Source: a virus
Lineage: Duplodnaviria; Heunggongvirae; Uroviricota; Caudoviricetes
Virus record (IMG/VR): IMGVR_UViG_3300037882_002341
Span: 128,958-192,957 of that record
Length of the DNA: 64,000 nucleotides
Strand: one strand, 5' to 3'
Under the pieces are notes generated by a model. The model worked only from the letters and a program-made list of their open reading frames with translations, did no database searches and was not told where the DNA came from. The translations under genes and the position numbers were made by a program. Shown piece by piece: positions 43,905 through 62,706 of the stretch (positions are counted from its first letter, which is position 1; every line of letters begins with the position of its first letter).

Positions 43905-44675
43905 TTAGGATAGAGGATAAAGGATGTAATCCTTCATAGGACCAAAGATACGTTTCTGTTCAATTGCATGGCAGTTAGCGCGTGCTCTAGCTTCAACAAC
44001 GGCGTTCTTAAGCTTAATAGCTCTCTCAATAAGTTCAGACTTCTGATGTGTAGTGGGGAGACTAGTCCACTGATACTTAGTAACATTACCAACAACTACA
44101 TCCTTAACCTGCTTAACCACCTGAGCAGCATGTTCTTTAGTAGCAGGAACAACCGTAAGGAACTCCTCAATCTTCGAGGTTCTATGCCTCACGATGGGAC
44201 TAGCCTGAAGAACATTAGCTCCCATACTGTTATCAGGAGCAAATCCCATTGCAGGATCAGCTGTAGGAATGCTCTCAATGAGCTTAATAATCTGATTGAA
44301 TCGCTTTTCAAGATGAACAAGGAAGGTAGAGGGAACTCCTGTAGCGAATACCTCTCCATCAACAACAATATCTGCTTTAGCTTCACAGTTAGCAAGATCA
44401 ATAGTATGCAGAAGATCAATAGTTTCCGCAAACTTATTAAAAATAAAGCCAGCTTCCTTAGCAACAGTCGTTACTAAAGGAGTTTCATCTTCAACAACAG
44501 GCTGAGCTAACTCTCCCTCTTTCTCACTGTTAGGAGTAAATACAGTCTTACTCTTCTTAAAGAGCTGATGCTTATCCTTAAAGGTGCTCATATGCTCCTT
44601 TAACAGAGCATCAATCTCACCCTCTTTAGTGGTCTTAACAGCGAGAAGTTCATGAAGCTTACTACTCTTTGCCAT
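43905..44675 (-). CDS. hypothetical protein
   Basis: 256 aa. Confidence 0.4.
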   Translation of the reverse strand: MAKSSKLHELLAVKTTKEGEIDALLKEHMSTFKDKHQLFKKSKTVFTPNSEKEGELAQPVVEDETPLVTTVAKEAGFIFNKFAETIDLLHTIDLANCEAKADIVVDGEVFATGVPSTFLVHLEKRFNQIIKLIESIPTADPAMGFAPDNSMGANVLQASPIVRHRTSKIEEFLTVVPATKEHAAQVVKQVKDVVVGNVTKYQWTSLPTTHQKSELIERAIKLKNAVVEARARANCHAIEQKRIFGPMKDYILYPLS

Positions 44676-44781: not shown

Positions 44782-45807
44782 TTATTTTGAAATCTCCTTT
44801 AGATCAAGAAGCATGGTAGGCGAACCGGACATCACAACACCTGGAACTGTACCAGCCCACTTCTGAATCTGATGAAGTTGAAGGACTCGTGCTCCGTCTG
44901 TCCCAGACAGAGATTCTGCAAGACGCAAGTTTGCATTTGCCTCTGCCGTAGAAGTTGCGGTGCGGTAGTAGGCATCTGTATCAGCTTTTGCCGTAAACGT
45001 TACGGTACGGTGATAAGCTTCTGCATCAGCCTTAAGTCGCTGAGCATCTGCAGCACCACGCGCTGCCTCAATTGCGGCGTCTGCTACGCCTGCTGCTTGA
45101 GCTTTAGTAATTTCTGCCTGTTTCTCTGCTGACTGAAGCTCATACGTCTTCTGAAGAGCACGCTGTTCCTGAACCTGTTTTTCTTCAATTGCTTTTGTAT
45201 AATCATCAGAGAAGTCAATATTCCGCATACTAACTTCAACAAGCGCAATACCGTATTTCCCCAACCATTCTGCTATATCAGCCTGAATTGCATCTTTAAT
45301 TGAAGCCCGATTCTGAAGAATCTCAGAGGCATTGTGGTTTGCCATTTCGGCTTTAGCCACTTCCTGTTCCGCATTCGGTATAATAACAGAAGCCCAGTCA
45401 ATACCGATTTCACGGTAAATACGCGGAGCCGTTGCTGCAGTAAGACGGTAGTTTGAGCCAAGGATAAGATTTACTTCCTGTAAATCCTTTGAAGCTGCAG
45501 CAAGATTATCTTCACGAGCTTGGACCTGCACATTCATCTTAACAACATTAACAAGTGGATTGATGAAATGTGCACCAGCCTCAAGTGGAGTGTCTTCTAC
45601 ATCGCCAAAAAGCACCACAACACCGACATGACCAGCTGGAACAGTGGTCCAGCTTGCTATAGTGACAAGTACGATAGGTGCGATTGAGCCCACACCGTAA
45701 AAAATCTTACCGCCGATACGCTCGGCCGGATCCTTTGATCCAGTTAACTTTTTCCCAACAGGAAAACAAATAGCAACTAACAAAAGAGCAACTATCAGTA
45801 AGATCAT
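44782..45807 (-). CDS. SPFH/band-7 family membrane protein (HflC/prohibitin-like)
   Basis: 341 aa; N-terminal TM helix MILLIVALLLVAICF, SPFH core, Ala/Glu/Gln-rich coiled-coil C-terminus. Confidence 0.6.
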   Translation of the reverse strand: MILLIVALLLVAICFPVGKKLTGSKDPAERIGGKIFYGVGSIAPIVLVTIASWTTVPAGHVGVVVLFGDVEDTPLEAGAHFINPLVNVVKMNVQVQAREDNLAAASKDLQEVNLILGSNYRLTAATAPRIYREIGIDWASVIIPNAEQEVAKAEMANHNASEILQNRASIKDAIQADIAEWLGKYGIALVEVSMRNIDFSDDYTKAIEEKQVQEQRALQKTYELQSAEKQAEITKAQAAGVADAAIEAARGAADAQRLKADAEAYHRTVTFTAKADTDAYYRTATSTAEANANLRLAESLSGTDGARVLQLHQIQKWAGTVPGVVMSGSPTMLLDLKEISK

Positions 45808-45935: not shown

Positions 45936-45980
45936 CAAAATAAAATAAGCCCACTGGTCGTGAAACCAGCAGGCTTATTT
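45936..45980 (-). terminator. rho-independent terminator (minus strand)
   Basis: Minus-strand nested hairpin AAGCC-TG-CTGGT-TTCACG-ACCAG-TG-GGCTT followed by ATTTTATTTT, immediately 3' of the tRNA-like element at 45987..46018. Confidence 0.55.
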
Positions 45981-45986
45981 TATAGA

Positions 45987-46018
45987 TGGTGGACCCGGGG
46001 GGTATCGAACCCCCGTCC
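45987..46018 (-). other. orphan tRNA 3'-end-like minihelix (GGAC / T-arm / CGG-GTCC-A-CCA)
   Basis: The minus strand reads GGAC-GGGGG-TTCGATA-CCCCC-CGGGTCC-A-CCA. It has a T-arm, an acceptor 3' strand and an encoded CCA. No canonical 5' half lies upstream; only a 4-nt GGAC can pair with GTCC. Confidence 0.4.
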
Positions 46019-46426
46019 TGAGTTCTTTCTAATTATCTTACTACACGTTTATCTACTTTTAAGTTGTAGCAAACTTGGGGTGTAGAACACCTCCACCAGG
46101 ATCTTTAATGTCATATCCAAGACATACTGCATTTAAGACATACCCACACTTGTATCCATGGTAGGGGTCACCACGTGTTCCCGAAGGAACAAGTCCAATT
46201 AGGCACAGAGAGCGAGCTTAGACGAGCGATAGTCGCTCATCTTGAACACAGGGGTGTTACCACCCCAGCTTGCAGCAAACTCACTGGCGGTCATCGGAGC
46301 CACATCCTTGATGTTGGCAGATAGTTTTCCCTATCATTTTTAACGTGGCCAAGATAGGATCCACGACGTGCAAGATAAATCGAACAGAACCAGTCGATTC
46401 CAGTCGGGCCCTTTATTTCAAAGAAG

Positions 46427-47152
46427 CTAAACAGGCGACACTTCTTTACTTGCCATATAGTTTATCCTATCGGATAATAAGTTGGCAAGAGAAGAAATAA
46501 AAGCATTTTCTAGACCACCTCTTACAACTATAGCATCAAGTAAGTTTCTAGATTCTCTAAGATATACTGCGTCTTTTCCCCAAGCAAATGAATCAGTTTC
46601 AGGCCAGGAAAATAGATTATGTATTCTATCCACTAGCTTTATTAGCTTAACCTTTATACCTACGCTGCATATTCTTATTCTTTCAATCTCTTTCCTATCT
46701 TTTCTATTTAGTCGTATATACCATTTTCCGCTTGGTTTAGTGCAATGATAAATAGTCTCAAAACATTCGAATCCAAACTTGTCTAGTATAATCTCTGCCC
46801 ACTCAGGATCACAATCTTCTATTACATCATGCAATAAAGCAGAAATAACCAAGTAACTTAGTGACTTCTGTTCAAATGCGCTAAGAGGAGGACTATTTGT
46901 TCCTTGTACCAGGATTTCATATACACCAATAGCAACAGCTACTGGGTGTAATGCATAAGGAGTATTAGAAGTAAGATCACCTTTATCTCTAAATTGACCC
47001 CTATGTGCCTCAATGCATAATTCTAGAGCTTCAGAAGTATTCTCTAAAAGAGTTAATGGAAGTCTTTCTCTAGCAAGACTTCTAATATCTTCTTCATTAT
47101 CTATAGCTATTAGTTGAGTCCAAGGTAGTTTATAGAAGTTACTCATATTCAC
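46427..47152 (-). CDS. HD-domain (p)ppGpp hydrolase, SpoT/Mesh1-like small alarmone hydrolase
   Basis: 241 aa; ALELCIEAHRGQFRDKGDL ... PYALHPVAVAIGV ... ALLHDVIEDCD matches the RelA/SpoT HD hydrolase signature. Confidence 0.6.
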   Translation of the reverse strand: MNMSNFYKLPWTQLIAIDNEEDIRSLARERLPLTLLENTSEALELCIEAHRGQFRDKGDLTSNTPYALHPVAVAIGVYEILVQGTNSPPLSAFEQKSLSYLVISALLHDVIEDCDPEWAEIILDKFGFECFETIYHCTKPSGKWYIRLNRKDRKEIERIRICSVGIKVKLIKLVDRIHNLFSWPETDSFAWGKDAVYLRESRNLLDAIVVRGGLENAFISSLANLLSDRINYMASKEVSPV

Positions 47153-47696
47153 TTACTTGCTTAAGAATAAATCTATAAGTTTCTCTATGCTGTATATCTA
47201 TATTCTTATTATCTGGATTCATAAGTATCTGAAAATCTGTTGAGCACTTTAGATTCGTATAAGAGAAATCTCCCTTCGATTTCTCATTCTCCAATAACCA
47301 TCCAAGTACAGCAGATCTTATTACAGGTATATCTTCTTTATTGCGTGCAAAATTTCCATTACTATTTTGATAGCTATCTTCTGCAATAAGACAGATCACA
47401 GTTTTCTTAAAGAATCCAGTTAAAGCAGCAAAAAGCTCTGTTTTAACTTTATCTGGATCACCTTCCCATGTTCCCTTCCAAAGTAGAACACTAGGGTGAT
47501 CAACAGCTAATCTACTAATTAATCTAACATGGGTTCCTTTCTTAGTGAAAGGATACTTCTCAGTGTTGGCATAAAAAACGAGGACAACACGAACAATCTT
47601 GGTGTTTTCTTCATAGTCTATACCAATACCACAATTCAGATACATATGTCTATGTTTATCTAAGGGGATAGAACCCCAAGCAGCTAAAGATCTCAT
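47139..47696 (-). CDS. hypothetical protein
   Basis: 185 aa; lies between the HD hydrolase and tRNA-Arg. Confidence 0.4.
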   Translation of the reverse strand: MRSLAAWGSIPLDKHRHMYLNCGIGIDYEENTKIVRVVLVFYANTEKYPFTKKGTHVRLISRLAVDHPSVLLWKGTWEGDPDKVKTELFAALTGFFKKTVICLIAEDSYQNSNGNFARNKEDIPVIRSAVLGWLLENEKSKGDFSYTNLKCSTDFQILMNPDNKNIDIQHRETYRFILKQVSEYE

Positions 47697-47717
47697 CAGG
47701 ACCTCGCTTTAAAATGA

Positions 47718-47792
47718 TGGTGCCCTTAGTAGGATTTGAACCTACAAAAACAGCTTAGAAGGCTGTCGTTTTTCCAATTAGACTATAAGGGC
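47718..47792 (-). tRNA. tRNA-Arg (anticodon UCU), CCA encoded
   Basis: Cloverleaf: acceptor GCCCTTA/TAAGGGC 7/7, D-arm GTCT-AATTGGAA-AAAC, anticodon arm ACAGC-CTTCTAA-GCTGT, T-arm GTAGG-TTCAAAT-CCTAC, discriminator A and CCA; 75 nt. Confidence 0.8.
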
Positions 47793-47799
47793 AATAGAT

Positions 47800-49290
47800 T
47801 TAGTTAGCTAATAATCTCTCTCTAATTTCACCAAGAGTACATTCACGTACCATGATTCCATTACTATAAACAAGTTTAAGTAAACCACCAGGTTCTTCTT
47901 CAAGTGAGCATTGATCTATGACAAAGAAGTTTCCTTCATCATCCTGTTCTACACAGAGTAAACCGGTTGCGGATTTCTTGTCACCATTATCAGTAATTGG
48001 ATCTTTACTAAGATTTCTTTGTTCACCATTAACAATACCAAAGGTGGTCTTAATGGCAAATCCATGTGTATCTCTAGTTACATATTGATATGTATAACTA
48101 CCGATACCAAGAACTATATTACTAGAACAGAATCCCTTTAACATAAGCCCATGTAAAATGTCTTCTGCTCTAGTATAGTTTATGGCATCGCCATATATTA
48201 GACCAACTCTTGGATTCAGAACACGGAACCCTGCTGAATTAACCGCCCCACCAAAAGTTTCCCAGAGACACTGTATAGCCCCTTTAAAAGCGGGACTACC
48301 GGGTTCTGCACCGGAATCACCAAGGACTATTTTAACAGGATCTCCAGAATCGGGTCTAAAGACTACTTTAGCAAAACCTAATTCATTAGGTTTTCTTGCC
48401 AAAATCTCTTCTCTTAAAATATTAGCTGTACTAGTAATAACATTCCAGAAATTCCAGGTGTCGGAAACAATAGAAACAATACCTGTAGGGTTAACCTTAG
48501 TAATAATCCTACGGATAGTTTCTATTTCATTGTTTCTCTCTCCCATGCACATAACAGAATGTTCTGTTGCGGGTACACTTCCACCTATAAACTGAGTTCT
48601 TCCATAGTAGTAGTCTTCTAGATAATCTATAGCAGGAATAGTATCTGTACCAAGGAAGGAAAGCAAGTGTGCTGCGCCGGATTTTGCAGCATCCTCAATA
48701 CCACTCATGCCACGGAAACTAAAGTCATGTCCCTGAAAAGGAACAAATTCTTTAGAACCACCAGTCAAGTTTGCATAGTGATCAAAGAGTAATCTAAATT
48801 TATAGGCAGTTGTTGCACTGGTCGTCATTTTCCAGAGTTCTGCAGAAAGAGCAGTCTCTAGATAATTAACTAACCAGTAGAAATCAGAATGAGTATTATG
48901 AATAGTAAAGAGAGGAACATTAATGTTAACTCGAGAGCCTTCGGGTAATGCAGAAATAGAGATAGGTAGATAACCAAGCTTATGTAAAGCAAGGATATGA
49001 TCTACCTTAACTACTCCTTGACCAAGACTGGAATTCATTCTTCTAAGATAGCGATCTCTTATGTCCTGTGCGGGTAATGCAAAGAACTCTTTTCCCCATT
49101 TATCTATTAAGAGATCCTTTATTACACCTTGCAATCCAAAGAAAACAACTTTATCTCCCAATAGACCAGGATCAGAGTGTCTATTGGATCTAGGAGTAAA
49201 GTTTGAGTAGACGAATTGCGTTCCATCTGGATACTGATAGATATGTCCAGACTTATAGAAATCAATAGCACTTTCAGGACGAATTCTCAT
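47800..49290 (-). CDS. nadV: nicotinamide phosphoribosyltransferase (NAMPT/NadV)
   Basis: 496 aa; N-terminal [25 protein letters not shown] parallels NAMPT [33 protein letters not shown] ... [10 protein letters not shown] and [11 protein letters not shown] match NAMPT active-site segments. Confidence 0.75.
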   Translation of the reverse strand: [496 protein letters not shown]

Positions 49291-50117
49291 GAAACTATCC
49301 TTAAACGCGATTCACATAAAAAGGGTCTTGCACCAGGTAGAACATTTTTGCAAAAGATTACATTATATATTTGTAACAAATGTTCAATACCACGTGAGAA
49401 TATGCCATGACTAACATATAAATAAATAGGACCAGTTGTTATTTCTTTTAATCTTCCACCCAAGTTGATGAAAGTTCTTCCTCCATCACAAATATCATCT
49501 ACAACTAATAGAGATTCATTTCCAAGATTTTCAGAATAAACCTTGGCATCAGTAACATTACCCGTTTGGGAATCTCTCTTTTTATCTGCTTTAATAACCC
49601 TTATACCTAGGGATTTACCAACACTCTCTACTTTTTTATTTGCTCCTGCGTCAGGAGATACAAGAGTAAACTCACCGAAGTCCCTAAGTATCCTTGCTAC
49701 AGTATCATTTATCGTACTAATTCGTATATTGTTAACTAAAGCGCCAACTACATCACTATGTGGATCGAAGACACTAACCTTACTAAAACCCAATCCATTA
49801 ATAAAGTCAGCTACTACTTTAACAGATAAGCTCTCTCCCTTATTACACACTCTATCTTGTCTAGCATAGGGAAAATAAGGTACATCTAGTTGTATTTCGG
49901 GAGTAACAAAAGAAGATCTTCTTATTGCATCAACGAGTAGAGCAAGATTCCAAAGATCATTATTGCTTTCAAATTCCAGTAATATCCTAAAAAACTGCCA
50001 GTTTGGTTGGTTAAGCGTAATCTGCTTAACATCCAATAGGGTTTCCCCTGCGGGAAATCGTTCAAGCTTTATAGGTATTTCAGTAGTTCCAAAACTATTT
50101 ACATATAATCTTAACAA
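49287..50117 (-). CDS. prs: ribose-phosphate pyrophosphokinase (PRPP synthetase)
   Basis: 276 aa; DAIRRSS ... VPYFPYARQDR matches the Prs DALRRASA ... IPYFGYARQDR signature, and LLVVDDICDGGRT is the PRPP-binding loop. Confidence 0.65.
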   Translation of the reverse strand: MLRLYVNSFGTTEIPIKLERFPAGETLLDVKQITLNQPNWQFFRILLEFESNNDLWNLALLVDAIRRSSFVTPEIQLDVPYFPYARQDRVCNKGESLSVKVVADFINGLGFSKVSVFDPHSDVVGALVNNIRISTINDTVARILRDFGEFTLVSPDAGANKKVESVGKSLGIRVIKADKKRDSQTGNVTDAKVYSENLGNESLLVVDDICDGGRTFINLGGRLKEITTGPIYLYVSHGIFSRGIEHLLQIYNVIFCKNVLPGARPFLCESRLRIVS

Positions 50118-50124
50118 TTTCTAC

Positions 50125-50358
50125 CTAAACTTTCTTAGTTTTACCATCTACTGTAACATTAATAAAGATAGGCATGTTCTCTAATTTTCCATCAATACGA
50201 CAGATCATTTCTTCCCATATCGTCCACTCGATAATATTCTTTGTTATAAGTTCATTTACATTATCAAAGAGAAAAGCTCTCCACTCTCTTAGCTTATTAG
50301 CATCTTTACATCCTTTAATCTCTAACATAGTAGGAGGCTTAATCTTTTTATCTTGCAT
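50125..50358 (-). CDS. hypothetical protein
   Basis: 77 aa. Confidence 0.3.
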   Translation of the reverse strand: MQDKKIKPPTMLEIKGCKDANKLREWRAFLFDNVNELITKNIIEWTIWEEMICRIDGKLENMPIFINVTVDGKTKKV

Positions 50359-52246
50359 CAGGATTCTTTATAGAGTTTTTAGCAGGGCCATCTATTGCTG
50401 CAACAGTTTCTACAAGTACCTGCATTCCAGCAGGCGTATCCCCTAATAGGGCACGGAGGGTATTCGGCATGCCTCTAGAGATTATTACAATAGCTTTGCT
50501 GGGATCAAGAGACTGTCCTGCGGTAGAAGCTATATCGGGTAGAAGTCCTTCTCCAGTAAGCGGTCTATCTGTTCCAACAGCAGAAAGCCGTCTACTGGAT
50601 ATACCAGATTTAACAATACGCATCCAGGGAACATATCCCCAAAAGACCTTATTGGGTAATAGCCCACACTTAAAATAAGCTTCGCTTTTTCTTCTATGAT
50701 TCATAGAAGCCCAAGTGAAGCTTAAGGGATGTTCGTCACCCATAGCAATAATTTGTTTCCCAGTAGCTTCATGTTCTTTACCTATTGCTGCTTCAAGAAG
50801 CATACCTAGGGTACCTCTTTTAAATATGCTTCTATGGGATACACAAATATCCACAATCCTACCTTCTATTACGGGCATTTCATTGTTCGGAAGAACAATA
50901 ACAACTCCCTTACAACCAGAGAAACAAGTAATCTTATCACCCGTTCTCATAGGAAGGAAACTACGTAAGGAGAAGATTGTTCTAACACCAAGAACACCTG
51001 CATAATAAGCAGGTATAGTCTCAATAGTCTCTAAAATAGCTTCTTCTTTAAGTTCAGAGGCAATAAGAGAAATTCTTGTTTCTTCTTCCTCTTTAACAGA
51101 AGAATCTATTTTCTCTGAAGAGTTCTCTACTACTATATTCTTAATTCTTGTTGCAAGCAAACCAAAGGGTTTAACAAGATCTCCCTTTTGAACACTTAAA
51201 TTAACAAGAGGCTCAGGAGACCATCTTGTTATTCTAGTGACAGATTGCGCTTCCATATGGATAGCACAAGTCTCAGACATAGCAATAGTGTCTTCGAAGG
51301 TCGAGGGTCCAAGATCCATAACTGCAGTAAGAAGATTTCTAGTCTGGACTATTGATCCTTCTGCTTGAACAGGTCTAGCTTGAGGATAAGTAAGTTCACA
51401 AGAGTTCATTACAGCAGCTCTTGCTAAGCAAGCTCTGCTAGGACTTAAGTCCAAAAGAACAGTATTTCTTCTTGTGAACTCACAAAATTGGCTTATACCC
51501 TTTGTTATCTGACCTCTTTCAACACGAGCCCCATCACAAAGAGTATAAATACTATTGATAGTTTCAGATGAACTTGTTGAACAAGGATCGAGTCTAAAGA
51601 GCATTTCTTCAGGGAACTTAAGAGGGTCAATCTTTATACCATCTTTACGATGGTATAAAAGTACCATGTCTTTTGATCCTCTAATCTGTACTTCTGAATT
51701 CTGTACCTGTCTAACAAAAGGATGAGTCACTAATCTAGAAAGAAGCAAAGATTGCAATCTTTCATTATTAATATGAACTATGCCAAAGGCATTGGTCTGG
51801 AAGAAGAAGTTGGCAAGAGGAGAGTAATTATTACTATTAGTGTCCCCAGCAGGTACCATTACTCCCTTACTGCCAAACATTCCTTCGAGTACACGAATTG
51901 CTACTTTATTCTTATCCAGAAAGTGGTACTTACCATTTGAAAACGGTTCCCAAGGACTAACAAAACCAACATTTACAAAGGTAAAAAGAGTTGAACCAAC
52001 TACAAAGAAACCATCTTTATTGGGCCTAGGTAAAGTGAATTTTACAGGGCTTCTTACCCAGAATCCCTTAGCAACTCTTCCCTCAATAAATCCTTCATAA
52101 CTAATATTTTCCAAATTACCAATAGAAGAATTCTCTTGGGAAGTAGCACGCATTATCTTTGCGGATACGGTGACAAAGAGACCATAAGGTCTCACGGGTA
52201 GGACATTTTCCCCAAAGTCCCTATAATACCTGGCAGGAAGAAACAT
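50348..52246 (-). CDS. multisubunit RNA polymerase beta-subunit-like protein (C-terminal module)
   Basis: 632 aa; RTGDKITCFSGCKGVVIVLP corresponds to the universally conserved beta GDK-x3-RHGNKGV motif, and downstream LEAAIGKE matches the beta anchor region. Confidence 0.5.
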   Translation of the reverse strand: MFLPARYYRDFGENVLPVRPYGLFVTVSAKIMRATSQENSSIGNLENISYEGFIEGRVAKGFWVRSPVKFTLPRPNKDGFFVVGSTLFTFVNVGFVSPWEPFSNGKYHFLDKNKVAIRVLEGMFGSKGVMVPAGDTNSNNYSPLANFFFQTNAFGIVHINNERLQSLLLSRLVTHPFVRQVQNSEVQIRGSKDMVLLYHRKDGIKIDPLKFPEEMLFRLDPCSTSSSETINSIYTLCDGARVERGQITKGISQFCEFTRRNTVLLDLSPSRACLARAAVMNSCELTYPQARPVQAEGSIVQTRNLLTAVMDLGPSTFEDTIAMSETCAIHMEAQSVTRITRWSPEPLVNLSVQKGDLVKPFGLLATRIKNIVVENSSEKIDSSVKEEEETRISLIASELKEEAILETIETIPAYYAGVLGVRTIFSLRSFLPMRTGDKITCFSGCKGVVIVLPNNEMPVIEGRIVDICVSHRSIFKRGTLGMLLEAAIGKEHEATGKQIIAMGDEHPLSFTWASMNHRRKSEAYFKCGLLPNKVFWGYVPWMRIVKSGISSRRLSAVGTDRPLTGEGLLPDIASTAGQSLDPSKAIVIISRGMPNTLRALLGDTPAGMQVLVETVAAIDGPAKNSIKNPDAR

Positions 52247-53955
52247 TATTTTGTCTCCCAGATATATCTGAAAACAGAACCTCTATCTTCCCGATCCAAG
52301 TGAAACACGTGGCTAAAGAGACATATAGCTCTATCCAGGTCTGACCCAATAGTCTTATGGGTTAAAGCGAAACCAGGATAGTAAGTGTTAACAAGTTCAG
52401 TTAATCCTATTACATACTTTTCTTTTATCTCTCTGTTCACATCTTTATGATTTATCTCTGTCCCAAGAATACCTGACATATCCTTTGCTATTTCATCCAA
52501 GACAGAGACAAAACATCCTAATTTCCTATTAGCATTACCATTACTATCAATAGTAAGCTCTCTTAACTTACTAATGTAATACTCTTTTCTATCTTTTAGA
52601 TTTACTTCTATAAAGAGTATTACAGGTAACTCAAGCCTAAAATGGTAGACTATTCTTGATGCATCTTCTTCCTTGATACCTGCTCTAACAAGTAAATCTA
52701 TAGATTCAGATATAGTGGAATTCTTCCACTTACTGCGCCTTTCGAACATTTCCATAATATCTATTGGACTAAATGTTCTTTCCTCGGATATCTTATGCTT
52801 TGCATCAAGTGTAGCTTGTTGAATAGTTTCCGAAAATCTATTTGCCGCACTAGAGAGCCAAGGATCCTCTCCCATAATGAGCAATATTCTTCTTGCTGTT
52901 GCACCAACTATTCCAAGATAACCTTTCATAAAGAGGTTGGCAAAGTTGGTTTCCAGTATAATCTTATTACGGGTTTCTTTCTTACTAGAGATATCCTTAT
53001 TCACGATACCTCTATCGATTTTACCGGTAATCTTTTCCATTTCACGGACTGTATTTGTGGGTGAAATCCATCCACACACATCACCAGGTCCATAGGAAAA
53101 TCCATTAACTGTAAAACGATTTAAGGTATCTTGTATTATATTAGACCAATCAGGATCTTCTGGGAGATTATCATGACAAAGATACTTAGGCCATTTTGCA
53201 TGAAGCAAAGTGTGCTTAAGCAAATTGTCATTCATCTCTCTCAGAACTTCTGGTTCCTGAGGAGGCTTTACAAAAGCAACTTGATCACCATCGCAATCTG
53301 CATTTAACTGTTTAAACAAGAGAGGATGTAAAGCAATAACATTATCATCTATAGGATAAGCTCTAACAACTTCCATAGAACCAGTCCAAATTACAGGATC
53401 TCTGAAGATTATTATTAAATCTCCCTCTTTGATACCTGTATTCTTCATTGCAATAGTGCTTATTCCCACCCATTCTGGACTACGAGAAATCTGGGGGATA
53501 AGTACCAATCTACCAGAGTGTGCCATTCTGGTACCACTTATATTAGTGGCTATTACACCTCTATTGCCTATGACTCTATTCATTAGGCTTAAGTAGAAAA
53601 GCTTAACAAGTCTTTCAATTACAACTATACTAAGGTTACCTTCGTTTTGCTCGAAGTACGCAAGTAACTGATTACCTGCTACTGTTACAGGGTGAAGGAA
53701 GACCATTTCTCCCGATTTCTCAATTCTTCCATCGGGGGAAAGAGCAGGAATCATTATATGATTTATTGTTCTACCAAAAGGATCAGATACAAAAAAATTC
53801 TGAGGTAAATTGATCCGAGCTCCTCTTTTAAGGATAGCAGGATCAATTAATGTATCTTTAACATCTTTAGGTATTTGACCAAGTCTGACAGTTCTTCCTA
53901 CATCAAGAGTTGTAATATCAGAGTCTAAACTTACTTTAAGCCTAATGGCTTTCAT
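52246..53955 (-). CDS. multisubunit RNA polymerase beta'-subunit-like protein (catalytic NADFDGD module)
   Basis: 569 aa; GTRMAHSGRLVLIPQ matches beta' GKRVDYSGRSVIVVGP, and DPVIWTGSMEVVRAYPIDDNVIALHPLLFKQLNADCDGDQVAFV matches beta' NRAPTLHRLGIQAFEP ... [21 protein letters not shown], including the Mg-binding aspartates. Confidence 0.7.
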   Translation of the reverse strand: MKAIRLKVSLDSDITTLDVGRTVRLGQIPKDVKDTLIDPAILKRGARINLPQNFFVSDPFGRTINHIMIPALSPDGRIEKSGEMVFLHPVTVAGNQLLAYFEQNEGNLSIVVIERLVKLFYLSLMNRVIGNRGVIATNISGTRMAHSGRLVLIPQISRSPEWVGISTIAMKNTGIKEGDLIIIFRDPVIWTGSMEVVRAYPIDDNVIALHPLLFKQLNADCDGDQVAFVKPPQEPEVLREMNDNLLKHTLLHAKWPKYLCHDNLPEDPDWSNIIQDTLNRFTVNGFSYGPGDVCGWISPTNTVREMEKITGKIDRGIVNKDISSKKETRNKIILETNFANLFMKGYLGIVGATARRILLIMGEDPWLSSAANRFSETIQQATLDAKHKISEERTFSPIDIMEMFERRSKWKNSTISESIDLLVRAGIKEEDASRIVYHFRLELPVILFIEVNLKDRKEYYISKLRELTIDSNGNANRKLGCFVSVLDEIAKDMSGILGTEINHKDVNREIKEKYVIGLTELVNTYYPGFALTHKTIGSDLDRAICLFSHVFHLDREDRGSVFRYIWETK

Positions 53956-57608: not shown

Positions 57609-58109
57609 TTACGATACTACTTCTACATTATCCGGTAAATCAAGAAGCAAGGGTTTAACTTCCTCTTGTTTTAGACCACCAAGTCCTATACCGGGGAAGT
57701 TGACTCTAAGAGTCCATTCATTATAACGAAGAGCTATTTCTCTTAGCCTAACTACAGATTCCTTTATAAGGATAAGATCTGCTTTATTCCCATAATAATA
57801 CTTTACCTGAAAACCACCTAATATCACATTGTTCCAATTTCCCATTCTACAAATGTGATATTCATATATTGCGAGGTTTCCGTAGGTACCAAGAAAGGTT
57901 GCTATACCATCTTGTTGTTTCTTTAATATATCAAGAGCGGCTACTCCATCACAGCCTCCTACTTGAGCTCTCATGGCAAGAGCTGCGCCTTTGCCCATAA
58001 CAAGAGTTCTTCTTGTCATGTTGATTGTGCCATTGGTTGTACAAAAGATCATGAGCTTTTCTTTATCCTTAGGAGGAGTCATTAAACTCTTTTGTATAAA
58101 CCTTGGCAT
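57609..58109 (-). CDS. hypothetical protein, possibly macro-domain-like
   Basis: 166 aa; IFCTTNGTINMTRRTLVMGKGAALAMRAQVGG loosely parallels the macro-domain IVNAAN ... GGGVAGAI ... AAG core; weak. Confidence 0.25.
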   Translation of the reverse strand: MPRFIQKSLMTPPKDKEKLMIFCTTNGTINMTRRTLVMGKGAALAMRAQVGGCDGVAALDILKKQQDGIATFLGTYGNLAIYEYHICRMGNWNNVILGGFQVKYYYGNKADLILIKESVVRLREIALRYNEWTLRVNFPGIGLGGLKQEEVKPLLLDLPDNVEVVS

Positions 58110-58117
58110 TTTTAATC

Positions 58118-58564
58118 CTATCTCTGATATACAGAAGGTAACAACTTCTTTATTTCATTATCTATTCTGAGCAAGAAATCTTTAGGACCAGTTAACTTAA
58201 TAGCCGTATATGCACCTTGCATTCTTTCTTCCCACTTTAAATGTCCATTACTCCAAAAATGATCCCTTAAATACAATACTACCTTATTGTATTCATCTCC
58301 TTTTCTTAAGAAATAATCAAGGGTTATATTATCAACTAACACCTTTTCTATTTCTTCTCTTGCATCTCTTTTCTTCTGACTCTCTGCTAACATTGCAAGG
58401 GTCTTATCTTCAAAACCATTCTTCCAATCTATAGCAAACTTAGTTGCGAGGGCATGATGTTCTTCATCATCTATATATTTATCGCCTAATACAAGATCAC
58501 TTTCATTAGCACATAGTGCCACTAATCTTGTATTAATACGACGAAGTCTTATAGCCATATTCAC
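58118..58564 (-). CDS. hypothetical protein
   Basis: 148 aa. Confidence 0.4.
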   Translation of the reverse strand: MNMAIRLRRINTRLVALCANESDLVLGDKYIDDEEHHALATKFAIDWKNGFEDKTLAMLAESQKKRDAREEIEKVLVDNITLDYFLRKGDEYNKVVLYLRDHFWSNGHLKWEERMQGAYTAIKLTGPKDFLLRIDNEIKKLLPSVYQR

Positions 58565-59034
58565 CCCGTTACGATACTAACATTTCTAATAGTTCTATCT
58601 TTTGCATATTTCTTGATAAGCTTTTGTACGTATTTACGTACATCTCTCACACTAGTTCCATAATATCTTTCTTCTGGACCCGAATAAAACAATCTTCTGA
58701 TTTCATCAAGAGTTAGACCTAGCGTATTACAAGTATCAGGGCTTTTACTATAAGCTGCATCAAAAGGTAGATGGCGAAGTACGTGTCCTTTATTGAATCT
58801 TTCTCTAAACCATAGATCTACGCAAGCATGACCCGCAACACAAGCAATAGTTTTACACTTAGGTGATATATTGCTCTGTCCCGGATGATCAGCTAATAAT
58901 CTTGTGTGGCTCCTATATGTATCTCTAAGTATCTCAATGTCAAAAGCAAGCTTATCTCTTTCTACTTTTGCAAGAACTCTATCTATATTCTTTAGAAAAG
59001 ATAGAGTTGTAAACGAAAGCTTCTTTTTGGACAT
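58561..59034 (-). CDS. hypothetical protein, paralog family C
   Basis: 157 aa; C-x-T/I-x-AC-x-AG ... D-x-WF ... Y-x-G ... LF-x-GP ... KLI-K/R-KY-x-K pattern shared with 60248..60748. Confidence 0.4.
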   Translation of the reverse strand: MSKKKLSFTTLSFLKNIDRVLAKVERDKLAFDIEILRDTYRSHTRLLADHPGQSNISPKCKTIACVAGHACVDLWFRERFNKGHVLRHLPFDAAYSKSPDTCNTLGLTLDEIRRLFYSGPEERYYGTSVRDVRKYVQKLIKKYAKDRTIRNVSIVTG

Positions 59035-59818: not shown

Positions 59819-60244
59819 TTATCTAATAACAAATTCCATACTATGCTTAATTTCAATGATATGTATAACTCTATTTCTACTTTCATCTACTATTTGGTTA
59901 TACCAATCTGTATATAAGATTCTCTTAACACCACTTTTAATAAGAAGAGACATGCAAGCTTTGCATGGTCTGGCCATACTAATAGCGGTACTATTCTTTG
60001 TAAGTCTTACTACAAATACGGTAGAATCTTTTATATCTCTACCGCTATTGTTGAACATTGCTAATTCAGCATGAGTCTTGCGTGTTCTATTTAATGCCTG
60101 AGTGCTTGTTTTATGAGGGTCATTACAGCCTATACCTATGATTCTTCCATTTCTATAGGCTGACGCTCCTACTTTATATCGAGATCCCTCTGAGATCTGT
60201 GCTACATCTAGAGCGGCTTTTACTAGTCTATCTATGATAGCCAT
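59819..60244 (-). CDS. cytidine/deoxycytidylate deaminase-fold protein (second deaminase)
   Basis: 141 aa; zinc motifs HAELAMF and PCKACMSLL (H-A-E ... P-C-x-x-C). Confidence 0.5.
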   Translation of the reverse strand: MAIIDRLVKAALDVAQISEGSRYKVGASAYRNGRIIGIGCNDPHKTSTQALNRTRKTHAELAMFNNSGRDIKDSTVFVVRLTKNSTAISMARPCKACMSLLIKSGVKRILYTDWYNQIVDESRNRVIHIIEIKHSMEFVIR

Positions 60245-60247
60245 ATG

Positions 60248-60748
60248 CTAATTCTTAATTTTCAAACCAGACTTTGTTTTATACTTTCTAATAAGTTTTC
60301 TAGCATATGAAACAATGTCTTTTGCGGTTACATCTTCTACATTATTACGAATGTCTGGACCATTAAGAAATAGTTGTTCAGTTTCGGCTTCACTAAGACC
60401 AAAGTATCTTTCAAGATTAGCATTTCCATACATTGCTAAAATTCCTGCCCTAGATCCATTTATCTTAATGAAACCCTTTTTAGATGTTTCTAGACCATTC
60501 TTCATAAACCAAGGATCTAATCCACACCATCCAGCAGTGCAGGCCTGAGTAGCACAGGACGGTAAATCTTTCTTTTCTAATTGACTAAAGGCACTTGCCA
60601 TATCATCAAATGACTTCCATCTTGAAAACCAAGAATTAATCTCAAAGGCAAGAGGAGGTTTCTTTGATACTTCAAGCATTACCCGAAGTAAATTCTCTAA
60701 TCGCTTTACACGAGTTATTCCAGAAATCTCTTTTATCTTTGTTTTCAT
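60248..60748 (-). CDS. hypothetical protein, paralog family C
   Basis: 166 aa; paralog of 58561..59034. Confidence 0.4.
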   Translation of the reverse strand: MKTKIKEISGITRVKRLENLLRVMLEVSKKPPLAFEINSWFSRWKSFDDMASAFSQLEKKDLPSCATQACTAGWCGLDPWFMKNGLETSKKGFIKINGSRAGILAMYGNANLERYFGLSEAETEQLFLNGPDIRNNVEDVTAKDIVSYARKLIRKYKTKSGLKIKN

Positions 60749-60784: not shown

Positions 60785-60861
60785 TGGTAGGCTCGGTGAG
60801 ACTCGAACTCACTGTCACCCGATTATGAGTCGGACGCTTATACCACTTAAGCTTCGAGCCC
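60785..60861 (-). tRNA. tRNA-Met (anticodon CAU; elongator-type or Ile2-type), CCA encoded
   Basis: Cloverleaf: acceptor GGGCTCG/CGAGCCT, D-arm GCTT-AAGTGGTAT-AAGC, anticodon arm TCCGA-CTCATAA-TCGGG, variable TGACA, T-arm GTGAG-TTCGAGT-CTCAC, discriminator A and CCA. The anticodon stem lacks the three G-C pairs of initiator tRNA. Confidence 0.75.
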
Positions 60862-62256: not shown

Positions 62257-62706
62257 TTAGAGCTCCGAACGAACTTTCATTAAGATCTTGCCTAGATGAT
62301 TAAGACCATTCCTATTATGCTCTCTGCATATACATATGCCCCAAAAGAGGTCATGCCACCAAGTTTCTTCTACTAGTTCTTCTTCTCCAGTAGCTTTTAA
62401 AGATTCTCTAAGTACTGGATTAGTAAACTTTGCTCTAACTATATCTTCCATGAATCTAAGTTTAACTCTATCCCAGTCTTTTCTTAAAGTTACCTTTTGT
62501 CCTGCTTCTTTAGCATTCTTAGGCTTAAGAAATCTTATTTCCTCTTGCTCATTTAGATCAAGGGTCTTCATTGCCTGATAAGCAGCTTCTGAACTTAACC
62601 AATTTCTTCCGTCGAACTCAAAGTTAGATTCAAAGAAGTTGCTCAGGAATCCGTAATTGCTTCCACTTCTAAAGTATATTATCATTTTAGGTCCACATGT
62701 GTCCAC
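62257..62706 (-). CDS. NADAR-domain protein (YbiA-like; NAD/ADP-ribose-associated)
   Basis: 149 aa; IYFRSGSNYGFLSNFFESNFEFDGRNWLSSEAAYQAMK parallels E. coli YbiA INFYSTSDDYGDFSNFAAWPIKVDGKTWPTSEHYFQAQK, and ETWWHDLFWG parallels YbiA DAYWGDG. Confidence 0.65.
   Translation of the reverse strand: MDTCGPKMIIYFRSGSNYGFLSNFFESNFEFDGRNWLSSEAAYQAMKTLDLNEQEEIRFLKPKNAKEAGQKVTLRKDWDRVKLRFMEDIVRAKFTNPVLRESLKATGEEELVEETWWHDLFWGICICREHNRNGLNHLGKILMKVRSEL

Follow-up and report, generated by a model that had tools for sequence, protein, structure and literature searches.

A probable NARP1 gene pair and a neighboring tRNA, alarmone hydrolase and tmRNA block in a divergent large phage

The probable Adps-Namat gene pair

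We analyzed a 64-kb stretch (the window) of the ~193-kb phage genome IMGVR_UViG_3300037882_002341, in which two adjacent genes resemble Prs, the phosphoribosyl pyrophosphate (PRPP) synthetase, and the nicotinamide phosphoribosyltransferase NAMPT. Every gene in this region of the window is encoded on the minus strand, and the GC skew is uniformly negative. Read along the minus strand, the order is RNA polymerase (RNAP) beta' - RNAP beta - orf77 - Adps - Namat - tRNA-Arg - unk185 - HD - tmRNA - terminator, and the genes are tightly packed (Table 1). A preliminary description of this DNA had named four open reading frames (ORFs) here, and all four are present on the minus strand with the boundaries it gave. 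Its domain assignments for the HD, NAMPT-like and Prs-like proteins were borne out by hidden Markov model (HMM) searches. It had further joined Prs and NAMPT into a route from nicotinamide to nicotinamide mononucleotide (NMN) like that of Vibrio phage KVP40, the "NAMPT half" of an NAD+ pathway. The adjacency and the domain families stand, whereas the enzyme identities do not, because the features of the two proteins are those of Adps (ADP-ribose pyrophosphokinase) and Namat (nicotinamide ADP-ribose transferase). Judging from these features, the pair is very probably NARP1, a known two-enzyme phage pathway that rebuilds NAD+.

It has been reported that phage "Prs + Nampt" operons encode Adps and Namat, not makers of PRPP and NMN, and that NARP1 occurs in 4.3% of phages (Osterman et al., bioRxiv 10.1101/2024.02.11.579819). 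The KVP40-type combination of Nampt and Nmnat is a separate system, NARP2, and none of the surveyed phages has both pathways (bioRxiv 10.1101/2024.02.11.579819). According to the same study, 97% of Adps-clade genes have an adjacent Namat, 94% of NARP2 Nampt phages have Nmnat, and for phage Bas63 the same Pfam-based Prs/Nampt prediction was disproved by experiment. In the window, Adps and Namat lie on the same strand, in the order Adps then Namat, and overlap by 4 bp (49287-49290).

The NAMPT-like protein scored 129 bits against NAPRTase, 26.8 bits against NAMPT_N and 551 bits against NCBIfam NF006629. Its top solved relatives were 9W5X and 9W5W, the crystal structures of SPbetaL1 Namat according to the depositors' paper, with 484 bits, whereas human or bacterial Nampt reached ~207 bits. 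A tblastn comparison of Namat with 2,044 phage records gave a bimodal distribution of identities, with one group at 35-60%, which includes the validated SPbetaL1 and FADO enzymes, and another at 27-31%, which includes KVP40-like large Vibrio phages. The window protein is 49% identical to SPbetaL1 Namat, 48% to FADO Namat and 30% to KVP40-like Nampt.

The residues around the substrate point the same way. The published consensus of the Namat-specific selectivity clamp (SCH) is GSXPhiXPhiXPhiTRD; the window protein fits it exactly and is the same as ICP1 in this motif, while KVP40-like Nampt has GGGLLQQLDRD. The stacking residue SCL can be Arg, Lys or Tyr; in SPbetaL1 it is R40, with which R37 of the window protein aligns. 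The other adenine-clamp equivalents, from SPbetaL1 to the window, are F392 to Y399, Y396 to Y403, T398 to T405 and D400 to D407. The SPbetaL1 Namat structure has 20 residues in contact with NAD+; 19 of them are identical in the window protein, and the remaining one is changed from F to Y. The Nampt-like catalytic core (F189, D215, R306 and others) is also kept, as F190, D216, R312 and D314 in the window.

The Prs-like protein scored 43 bits against Pribosyltran_N and 120 bits against TIGR01251, and it stayed below every Prs equivalog cut-off in NCBIfam. Two candidate discriminators between Adps and Prs were rejected: phrog_619, against which E. coli Prs itself scores 193 bits, and pairwise BLAST, which was ambiguous. 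Since these scores did not separate Adps from Prs, we used an HMM competition and a tree. The Adps HMM was built from 15 Namat-adjacent Prs-like proteins, excluding that of the window, and the Prs HMM from 11 canonical gammaproteobacterial Prs. The window protein scored 275 bits on the Adps HMM vs 72.5 bits on the Prs HMM; canonical Prs scored 128-138 bits on the Adps HMM. In a bootstrapped neighbor-joining (NJ) tree, it fell inside the Adps clade with 99.5% support, together with SPbetaL1, FADO and ICP1.

We also compared the protein with the published description of the ICP1 Adps structure, which gives the catalytic Lys185, the PP loop and the C-terminal truncation (PMC13586617). The residue numbering of that paper fits ICP1 Adps, and Lys185 corresponds to K179 in the window. 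The PP loop of the window protein, DDICDGGRTF, equals that of Felixounavirus Adps; the corresponding loops are DDICDGAASF in ICP1 and DDMIDTGGTL in E. coli Prs. The C-terminal alpha11-alpha12 module, which in canonical Prs serves filament formation and regulation, is absent from the window Adps (276 aa vs 315 aa in E. coli Prs). At the position of Phe92 the window protein has Cys; SPbetaL1 and Felix-type Adps likewise lack this Phe.

Membership of the Adps and Namat families is thus read from sequence, and we infer the chemistry from the validated homologs. A host TIR, SIR2 or SEFIR effector would cut NAD+ into ADP-ribose (ADPR) and nicotinamide. Adps would then use ATP to pyrophosphorylate ADPR at its 1'' position, giving ADPR-PP, and Namat would join ADPR-PP and nicotinamide into NAD+ directly, without an NMN intermediate or an NMN adenylyltransferase (NMNAT). 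As the preliminary description noted, no NMNAT is found in the window: tblastn with a NadM-Nudix query gave a best E of 0.48 over the 64 kb. However, its view of NMNAT as a missing partner falls, because NARP1 is complete with two enzymes that use ADPR and nicotinamide, so that the absence of NMNAT from the window is the expected state and not a gap. Annotation as Prs plus NAMPT is misleading in such cases, and a "missing NMNAT" is normal for NARP1.

NARP1 defeats a class of NAD+-depleting defenses, namely Thoeris, DSR1/2, SIR2-HerA and SEFIR. It has already been reported in ~4% of sequenced phages, and a single extra example adds little alone. Most likely, the pair is a further example of this known pathway, accompanied by counter-defense domains that have already been described, as far as the sequences indicate.

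Table 1. Features of the window discussed in the text
Feature	Position	Strand	Remarks
Hairpin resembling an intrinsic terminator	45940-45983	-	20-bp stem plus T-run; downstream of tmRNA
tmRNA	45987-46411	-	Rfam RF00023, 113 bits vs gathering score 47; E = 8e-45; model positions 1-374, full length
HD, small alarmone hydrolase (SpoT/Mesh1-type HD domain)	46427-47152	-	241 aa; predicted from HMM and motifs
unk185	47139-47696	-	185 aa; conserved partner of the HD gene; 3' end overlaps HD start
tRNA-Arg (anticodon UCU)	47718-47792	-	ARAGORN; Rfam tRNA 68 bits
Namat (nicotinamide ADP-ribose transferase, Nampt-like), probable second NARP1 enzyme	47800-49290	-	496 aa; predicted from sequence features
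Adps (ADP-ribose pyrophosphokinase, Prs-like), probable first NARP1 enzyme	49287-50117	-	276 aa; TTG start
orf77	50125-50358	-	77 aa; between RNAP beta-like gene and Adps; entered only for its tight packing in the gene string
RNAP beta-like gene, split multisubunit type	50348-52246	-	RNA polymerase Rpb2 domain match
RNAP beta'-like gene, split multisubunit type	52246-53955	-	RNA polymerase Rpb1 domain match
DarG2/TARG1-type macrodomain protein (AdfM-like)	57609-58109	-	166 aa; distal, outside the operon
NADAR-domain protein (AdfN-like)	62257-62706	-	distal; Pfam PF08719, 95.5 bits

The tRNA, unk185, HD and tmRNA block

Downstream of Namat are tRNA-Arg(UCU) and the 185-aa protein unk185, both found where the preliminary description had placed them, and then HD. 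The HD protein matched HD_4 with 30.9 bits (cut-off 27.2), the N-terminal region (residues 1-121) of TIGR00691 (spoT_relA) with 45 bits, and phrog_990. When it was aligned to Rel/SpoT hydrolase domains and MESH1 structures, the motifs AHRGQFR, PYxxHP, LLHDVIED and DRIHNL were all intact. On the basis of these motifs, HD is plausibly an active small alarmone hydrolase (SAH), in agreement with the SpoT/Mesh1 signature pointed out earlier. Its start may be the ATG at 47146, in view of a 239-aa JGI gene call. Among 5.8 billion proteins HD is nearly an orphan, with six distant homologs, and unk185 has only two homologs in the same collection. For unk185, we obtained no match in Pfam, NCBIfam, PHROGs or PADLOC, and its AlphaFold2 (AF2) model (pLDDT 63) gave no significant fold match.

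Directly downstream of HD is a transfer-messenger RNA (tmRNA), which is absent from the ARAGORN output and was missed by the preliminary description. Its predicted tag is unusually long, ~38 residues (ANIKDVAPMTASEFAASWGGNTPVFKMSDYRSSKLALCA), and ends in ...KLALCA; the 3' end of the RNA is ...GGGTCCACCA. The hairpin that follows the tmRNA likely marks the end of the transcription unit, as judged by its stem and T-run.

A local search of all fetched loci found an independent 2-kb contig (L012) that carries an unk185 homolog, then a small membrane (TM) ORF, an HD homolog and a tmRNA. The 5' half of the tmRNA is ~81% identical between the window and L012, with a ~29-nt invariant stretch across the tmRNA 5' end. 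The substitutions between the two keep the tag reading frame, and the L012 tag ends in ...DLVLA. Both HD proteins have a C-terminal motif in common, WPKNDRFAYGKDA in L012 and WPETDSFAWGKDA in the window. In a second short contig (L026), tRNA-Arg(UCU) lies directly upstream of an unk185 homolog. Pieced together from these contigs, the predicted order tRNA-Arg(UCU) - unk185 - HD - tmRNA is a recurring, partly conserved block.

None of the distant HD homologs in other phage-like contigs stands beside NARP1 genes, their contexts being unrelated, and the 16 fetched loci with NARP1 are all without an HD_4 gene. Phage PVP-SE1 has both a validated SAH and NARP1, not placed together. The neighbor of its Adps is a winged-helix protein, gp097 (L025 8691-9251), which lies directly upstream of Adps, weakly matches Pfam "wHTH-PRTase associated" and may regulate the NARP1 operon. 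Because the tRNA and tmRNA neighbors recur and HD_4 genes are absent from the other NARP1 loci fetched, we infer that HD and unk185 are part of a translation-themed block and not a NARP1 component. The preliminary description had grouped the SpoT-like hydrolase with the NAD module; this grouping is not upheld, as HD and unk185 recur with tmRNA in L012 and unk185 with tRNA in L026.

Phage SAHs from PVP-SE1 and SSU5 neutralize all toxSAS toxins tested (PMC7229694). The most likely substrates of HD would be (p)ppGpp or (p)ppApp, from which it would strip the 3'-pyrophosphate, and/or tRNAs that carry a pyrophosphate at their CCA ends. Acting beside the tRNA and tmRNA of the phage, it would sustain translation in the face of the stringent response or of toxSAS-type (CapRel/FaRel) defenses; this translation-protecting role is deduced from the predicted domain and its neighbors.

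Alternative readings and known systems

Several points weigh against the assignments made above. Both the tree, which was NJ, and the HMM relied on canonical Prs from Gammaproteobacteria only. Archaeal class III Prs are also short, and they were compared through PDB scores only (~66 bits). The window is 64 kb of the ~193-kb genome, so NMNAT could lie outside it. Namat enzymes retain some PRPP-dependent NMN synthesis in vitro. In addition, the closest Namat homolog, at 60% identity (L001, CAKLQF020000015.1), is labeled "Acinetobacter phage MD-2021a" and comes from a bacterial chromosomal contig with iron transport, AraC and efflux genes, where a prs2-nadV-nadM(Nudix) cluster places it next to an NMNAT/Nudix gene. 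As for HD, its link to translation relies on synteny in two short, fairly divergent contigs, genes may keep their order in a phage lineage without being functionally coupled, and the L012 HD homolog is without the N-terminal motifs.

We considered whether the pair could be a true PRPP synthetase and a NAMPT that make NMN from ribose-5-phosphate and nicotinamide, as in KVP40 and NARP2, with NMNAT supplied by the host or by another part of the phage genome. The Pfam and NCBIfam names agree with Prs and NAMPT, the closest homolog adjoins an NMNAT/Nudix gene in Acinetobacter, and about two-thirds of the genome is unseen. However, the Namat-specific adenine clamp is complete and KVP40-type residues are absent, identity to KVP40-like Nampt is 30%, and the placement in the Adps clade is strong. 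The survey figures cited above also speak against it, since no phage has both pathways and Nmnat accompanies nearly all NARP2 Nampt genes but is not found in the window, and the same Pfam-based prediction proved wrong experimentally for Bas63, whose counter-defense activity persists in a pncC nadR double mutant that lacks NMN-utilizing enzymes. The Acinetobacter NadV itself carries the Namat clamp signature (GSFTYNYLTRD), and its prs2-nadV genes look like a bacterial NARP1-like pair beside an NMNAT/ADPR pyrophosphatase gene. Activity of bacterial NARP1 homologs has been demonstrated. Therefore, this neighborhood leaves the NARP1 assignment standing, and we regard the NMN route as very improbable. 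Another option is that the pair serves the general nucleotide metabolism of a large phage, with PRPP for nucleotide synthesis and NAD+ for ligase or reductases, and not counter-defense. The pair lies among RNA polymerase genes, a deaminase gene is nearby, and the older literature saw phage NadV as a metabolic booster. Against this, the sequences argue for the Adps and Namat clades, and NARP1 phages raised no NAD+ in defense-free hosts, which makes a purely metabolic role extremely improbable.

The place of HD and unk185 can also be read in other ways. They may be a new accessory arm of NARP1, like Adpp or RyDEP, that would feed NARP1 by converting a phosphorylated NAD-derived product, for instance the 2'-phospho-ADPR left when NADP+ is cleaved, NADP(H) or a different ADPR derivative, into a usable substrate. 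HD lies ~650 bp from Namat on the same strand with no terminator between them, and NARP1 operons are known to take on accessory enzymes, which funnel ADPR-1''P or cyclic ADPR (cADPR) isomers into ADPR. SAH/Mesh1 enzymes are also documented NADPH 2'-phosphatases (PMC9765508), and for this reason we keep an NAD-linked role of HD as a minor rival. However, the other NARP1 loci are without an HD_4 gene (0 of 16), the PVP-SE1 Adps has a winged-helix neighbor, the distant HD homologs lie in unrelated contexts, the partly conserved neighbors are tRNA and tmRNA, and a tRNA gene stands between HD and Namat. We consider such an arm quite improbable. A wider proposal is that unk185 and the divergent SpoT-like hydrolase, which lie between a tRNA and a tmRNA and seem to share a transcript with NARP1, make up an undescribed counter-defense module. 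It would act either in de-pyrophosphorylation or repair of tRNA 3' ends, with the tmRNA, against toxSAS of the CapRel/FaRel2 type, or as a third kind of NARP1 accessory arm fed by phosphorylated NAD(P) breakdown products. We think this proposal unlikely; the unk185-SAH pair is, on weak support, the only piece here without a described precedent.

We compared the operon with known systems. Like NARP1 of Bas63, SPbetaL1, FADO and ICP1, it consists of neighboring genes that overlap, with Adps ahead of Namat, and it has the clamp signature, the PP loop and the equivalent of Lys185; the C-terminal regulatory module is lost, and no NMNAT is nearby. It differs in that the window Adps is 29-41% and the window Namat 45-50% identical to the characterized enzymes, and in that the operon lies directly downstream of highly divergent RNAP subunit genes, with a tRNA, two ORFs and a tmRNA between it and the terminator. 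The KVP40 system NARP2, composed of NadV (Nampt) and NatV (Nmnat/Nudix), is similar in the Nampt fold of its second enzyme and in the outcome, restoration of NAD+. Unlike NARP2, the window has a Prs-like partner and no Nmnat, its Nampt identity is 30%, and its clamp has S, F/Y, Y and T where KVP40-like proteins have G, G, Q and D.

Accessory genes are likewise attached in NARP1-AP (Adps-Adpp-Namat, Vibrio phage Gary) and in RyDEP-associated NARP1, and the window phage encodes a macrodomain too. Adpp of NARP1-AP is an ADPR-1''P phosphatase of the macro-domain type, encoded no more than two genes from NARP1. However, its operon contains no macro or RyR gene, the nearest genes being orf77, RNAP, tRNA, unk185 and HD, and the only macrodomain of the window is 7.5 kb off and DarG2/TARG1-like, not Poa1p-like. 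HD resembles PVP-SE1 PbcSpo, SSU5 PaSpo and MESH1 in having one HD_4 hydrolase domain in which every catalytic motif is present, and it is phage-encoded. It differs from the phage SAHs and MESH1 in its length of 241 aa with N- and C-terminal extensions, in an insertion between the HP and HD motifs, in an identity of at most 33% to its closest known relative, and in being paired with unk185 and flanked by tRNA and tmRNA.

Distal, putatively ADP-ribose-removing genes and the wider window

Two further genes for putative ADP-ribose-removing domains, named in the preliminary description as a possible macro-like protein and a NADAR-domain protein, were confirmed. The 166-aa macro protein alone had no Pfam match, and its single-sequence AF2 model reached a pLDDT of 37. 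Its family has ~1,100 representatives. A profile of 60 members, searched against structures, matched the DarG macrodomain 5M3I with E = 7e-13 and 5M31/5M3E with 1e-11 (PDB identities from PMC5179494), and TARG1 weakly with 1e-3. In this family N26 is near-invariant and K103 invariant, and they align to the catalytic N22 and K80 of Thermus aquaticus DarG2. The NADAR protein also matched TIGR02464 (88.9 bits) and phrog_1017 (136 bits), and weakly the T4 gp30.3 family (Phage_30_3, 25.8 bits, under its cut-off).

Phage precedents for both are known: AdfM is a DarG2-like macrodomain of chimalliviruses, and AdfN is a NADAR protein of T4-like and other phages. The window proteins resemble AdfM (PhiKZ gp104) and AdfN (T4 gp30.3) by domain type, as stand-alone ADP-ribose-removing phage domains; the macro protein keeps the catalytic Asn and Lys, and the NADAR protein is above the Pfam cut-off. 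They would act as independent enzymes that remove ADP-ribose against DarT-type toxins. The preliminary description had spoken of a concentration of counter-measures. Its general anti-defense theme is supported, and the phrase fits as a list of domains, but each is of a kind already described, and the two distal genes lie 7.5 kb and 12 kb off with unrelated ORFs between. Together, the probable NARP1 pair, the tRNA, the SAH and its partner, the tmRNA, the DarG2-like protein and the NADAR protein suggest one phage countering NAD depletion, alarmone/tRNA-targeting toxins and DNA ADP-ribosylation.

In Vibrio phage 5P1b (L021 4935-9184), a homolog of the DarG-like macro protein lies directly upstream of Adps. 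The NARP1 of this phage has, in addition, a separate Pfam Macro gene upstream of Namat, in the Adpp position, and an HNH endonuclease gene interrupts the operon. We rejected a general linkage of the DarG-like macro family to NARP1, as it adjoins Adps in 5P1b and not in the three other phages checked; the link is therefore lineage-specific. A NADAR homolog (37-40% identity) is found ~2 kb upstream of Adps in two IMG/VR uncultivated virus genomes (UViGs; L016 5456-5818 and L018 5973-6347). These two belong to a set of eight uncultivated phages, each of roughly 90 kb, that have the Adps closest to that of the window. The arrangement hints at a recurrent NADAR-NARP1 neighborhood.

Upstream of the pair, orf77 had no match in Pfam, PHROGs or further family searches. 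The two RNAP-like genes have Rpb2 and Rpb1 domain matches, and the beta'-like protein contains the motif NADCDGDQ. By these predicted features, the source is a large phage that encodes its own multisubunit RNA polymerase. A tblastn search of 50,697 cultured phage records with the beta'-like protein gave nothing at E <= 1e-3, and the beta-like protein had no relatives in IMG/VR; the lineage is very divergent. We found no relatives of the phage, either in viral contigs scanned with HD, unk185, an alignment of the unk185 family, the RNAP beta-like protein and a 22-mer from the tmRNA 5' end, or in metagenomes scanned with this 22-mer and this alignment. The probable NARP1 pair extends the range of the pathway to such a divergent lineage.

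Just downstream of the tmRNA terminator, there are genes on the minus strand for an SPFH/Band 7 membrane protein (44782-45807, 104 bits) and a DUF7873 protein (43905-44675, 173 bits). Further off, a cytidine/dCMP deaminase-fold protein is encoded at 59819-60244 (minus strand, Pfam 42.5 bits), with a weak, sub-threshold match to the NCBIfam "anti-phage dCTP deaminase" model, and a tRNA-Met(CAU) lies at 60785-60861. Two proteins of 157 and 166 aa (58561-59034 and 60248-60748, minus strand) have no family matches. They look paralogous by eye, with Cys-rich "C..AG..C..D.WF" segments in common and similar C-terminal tails, "..KLI(K/R)KY..".

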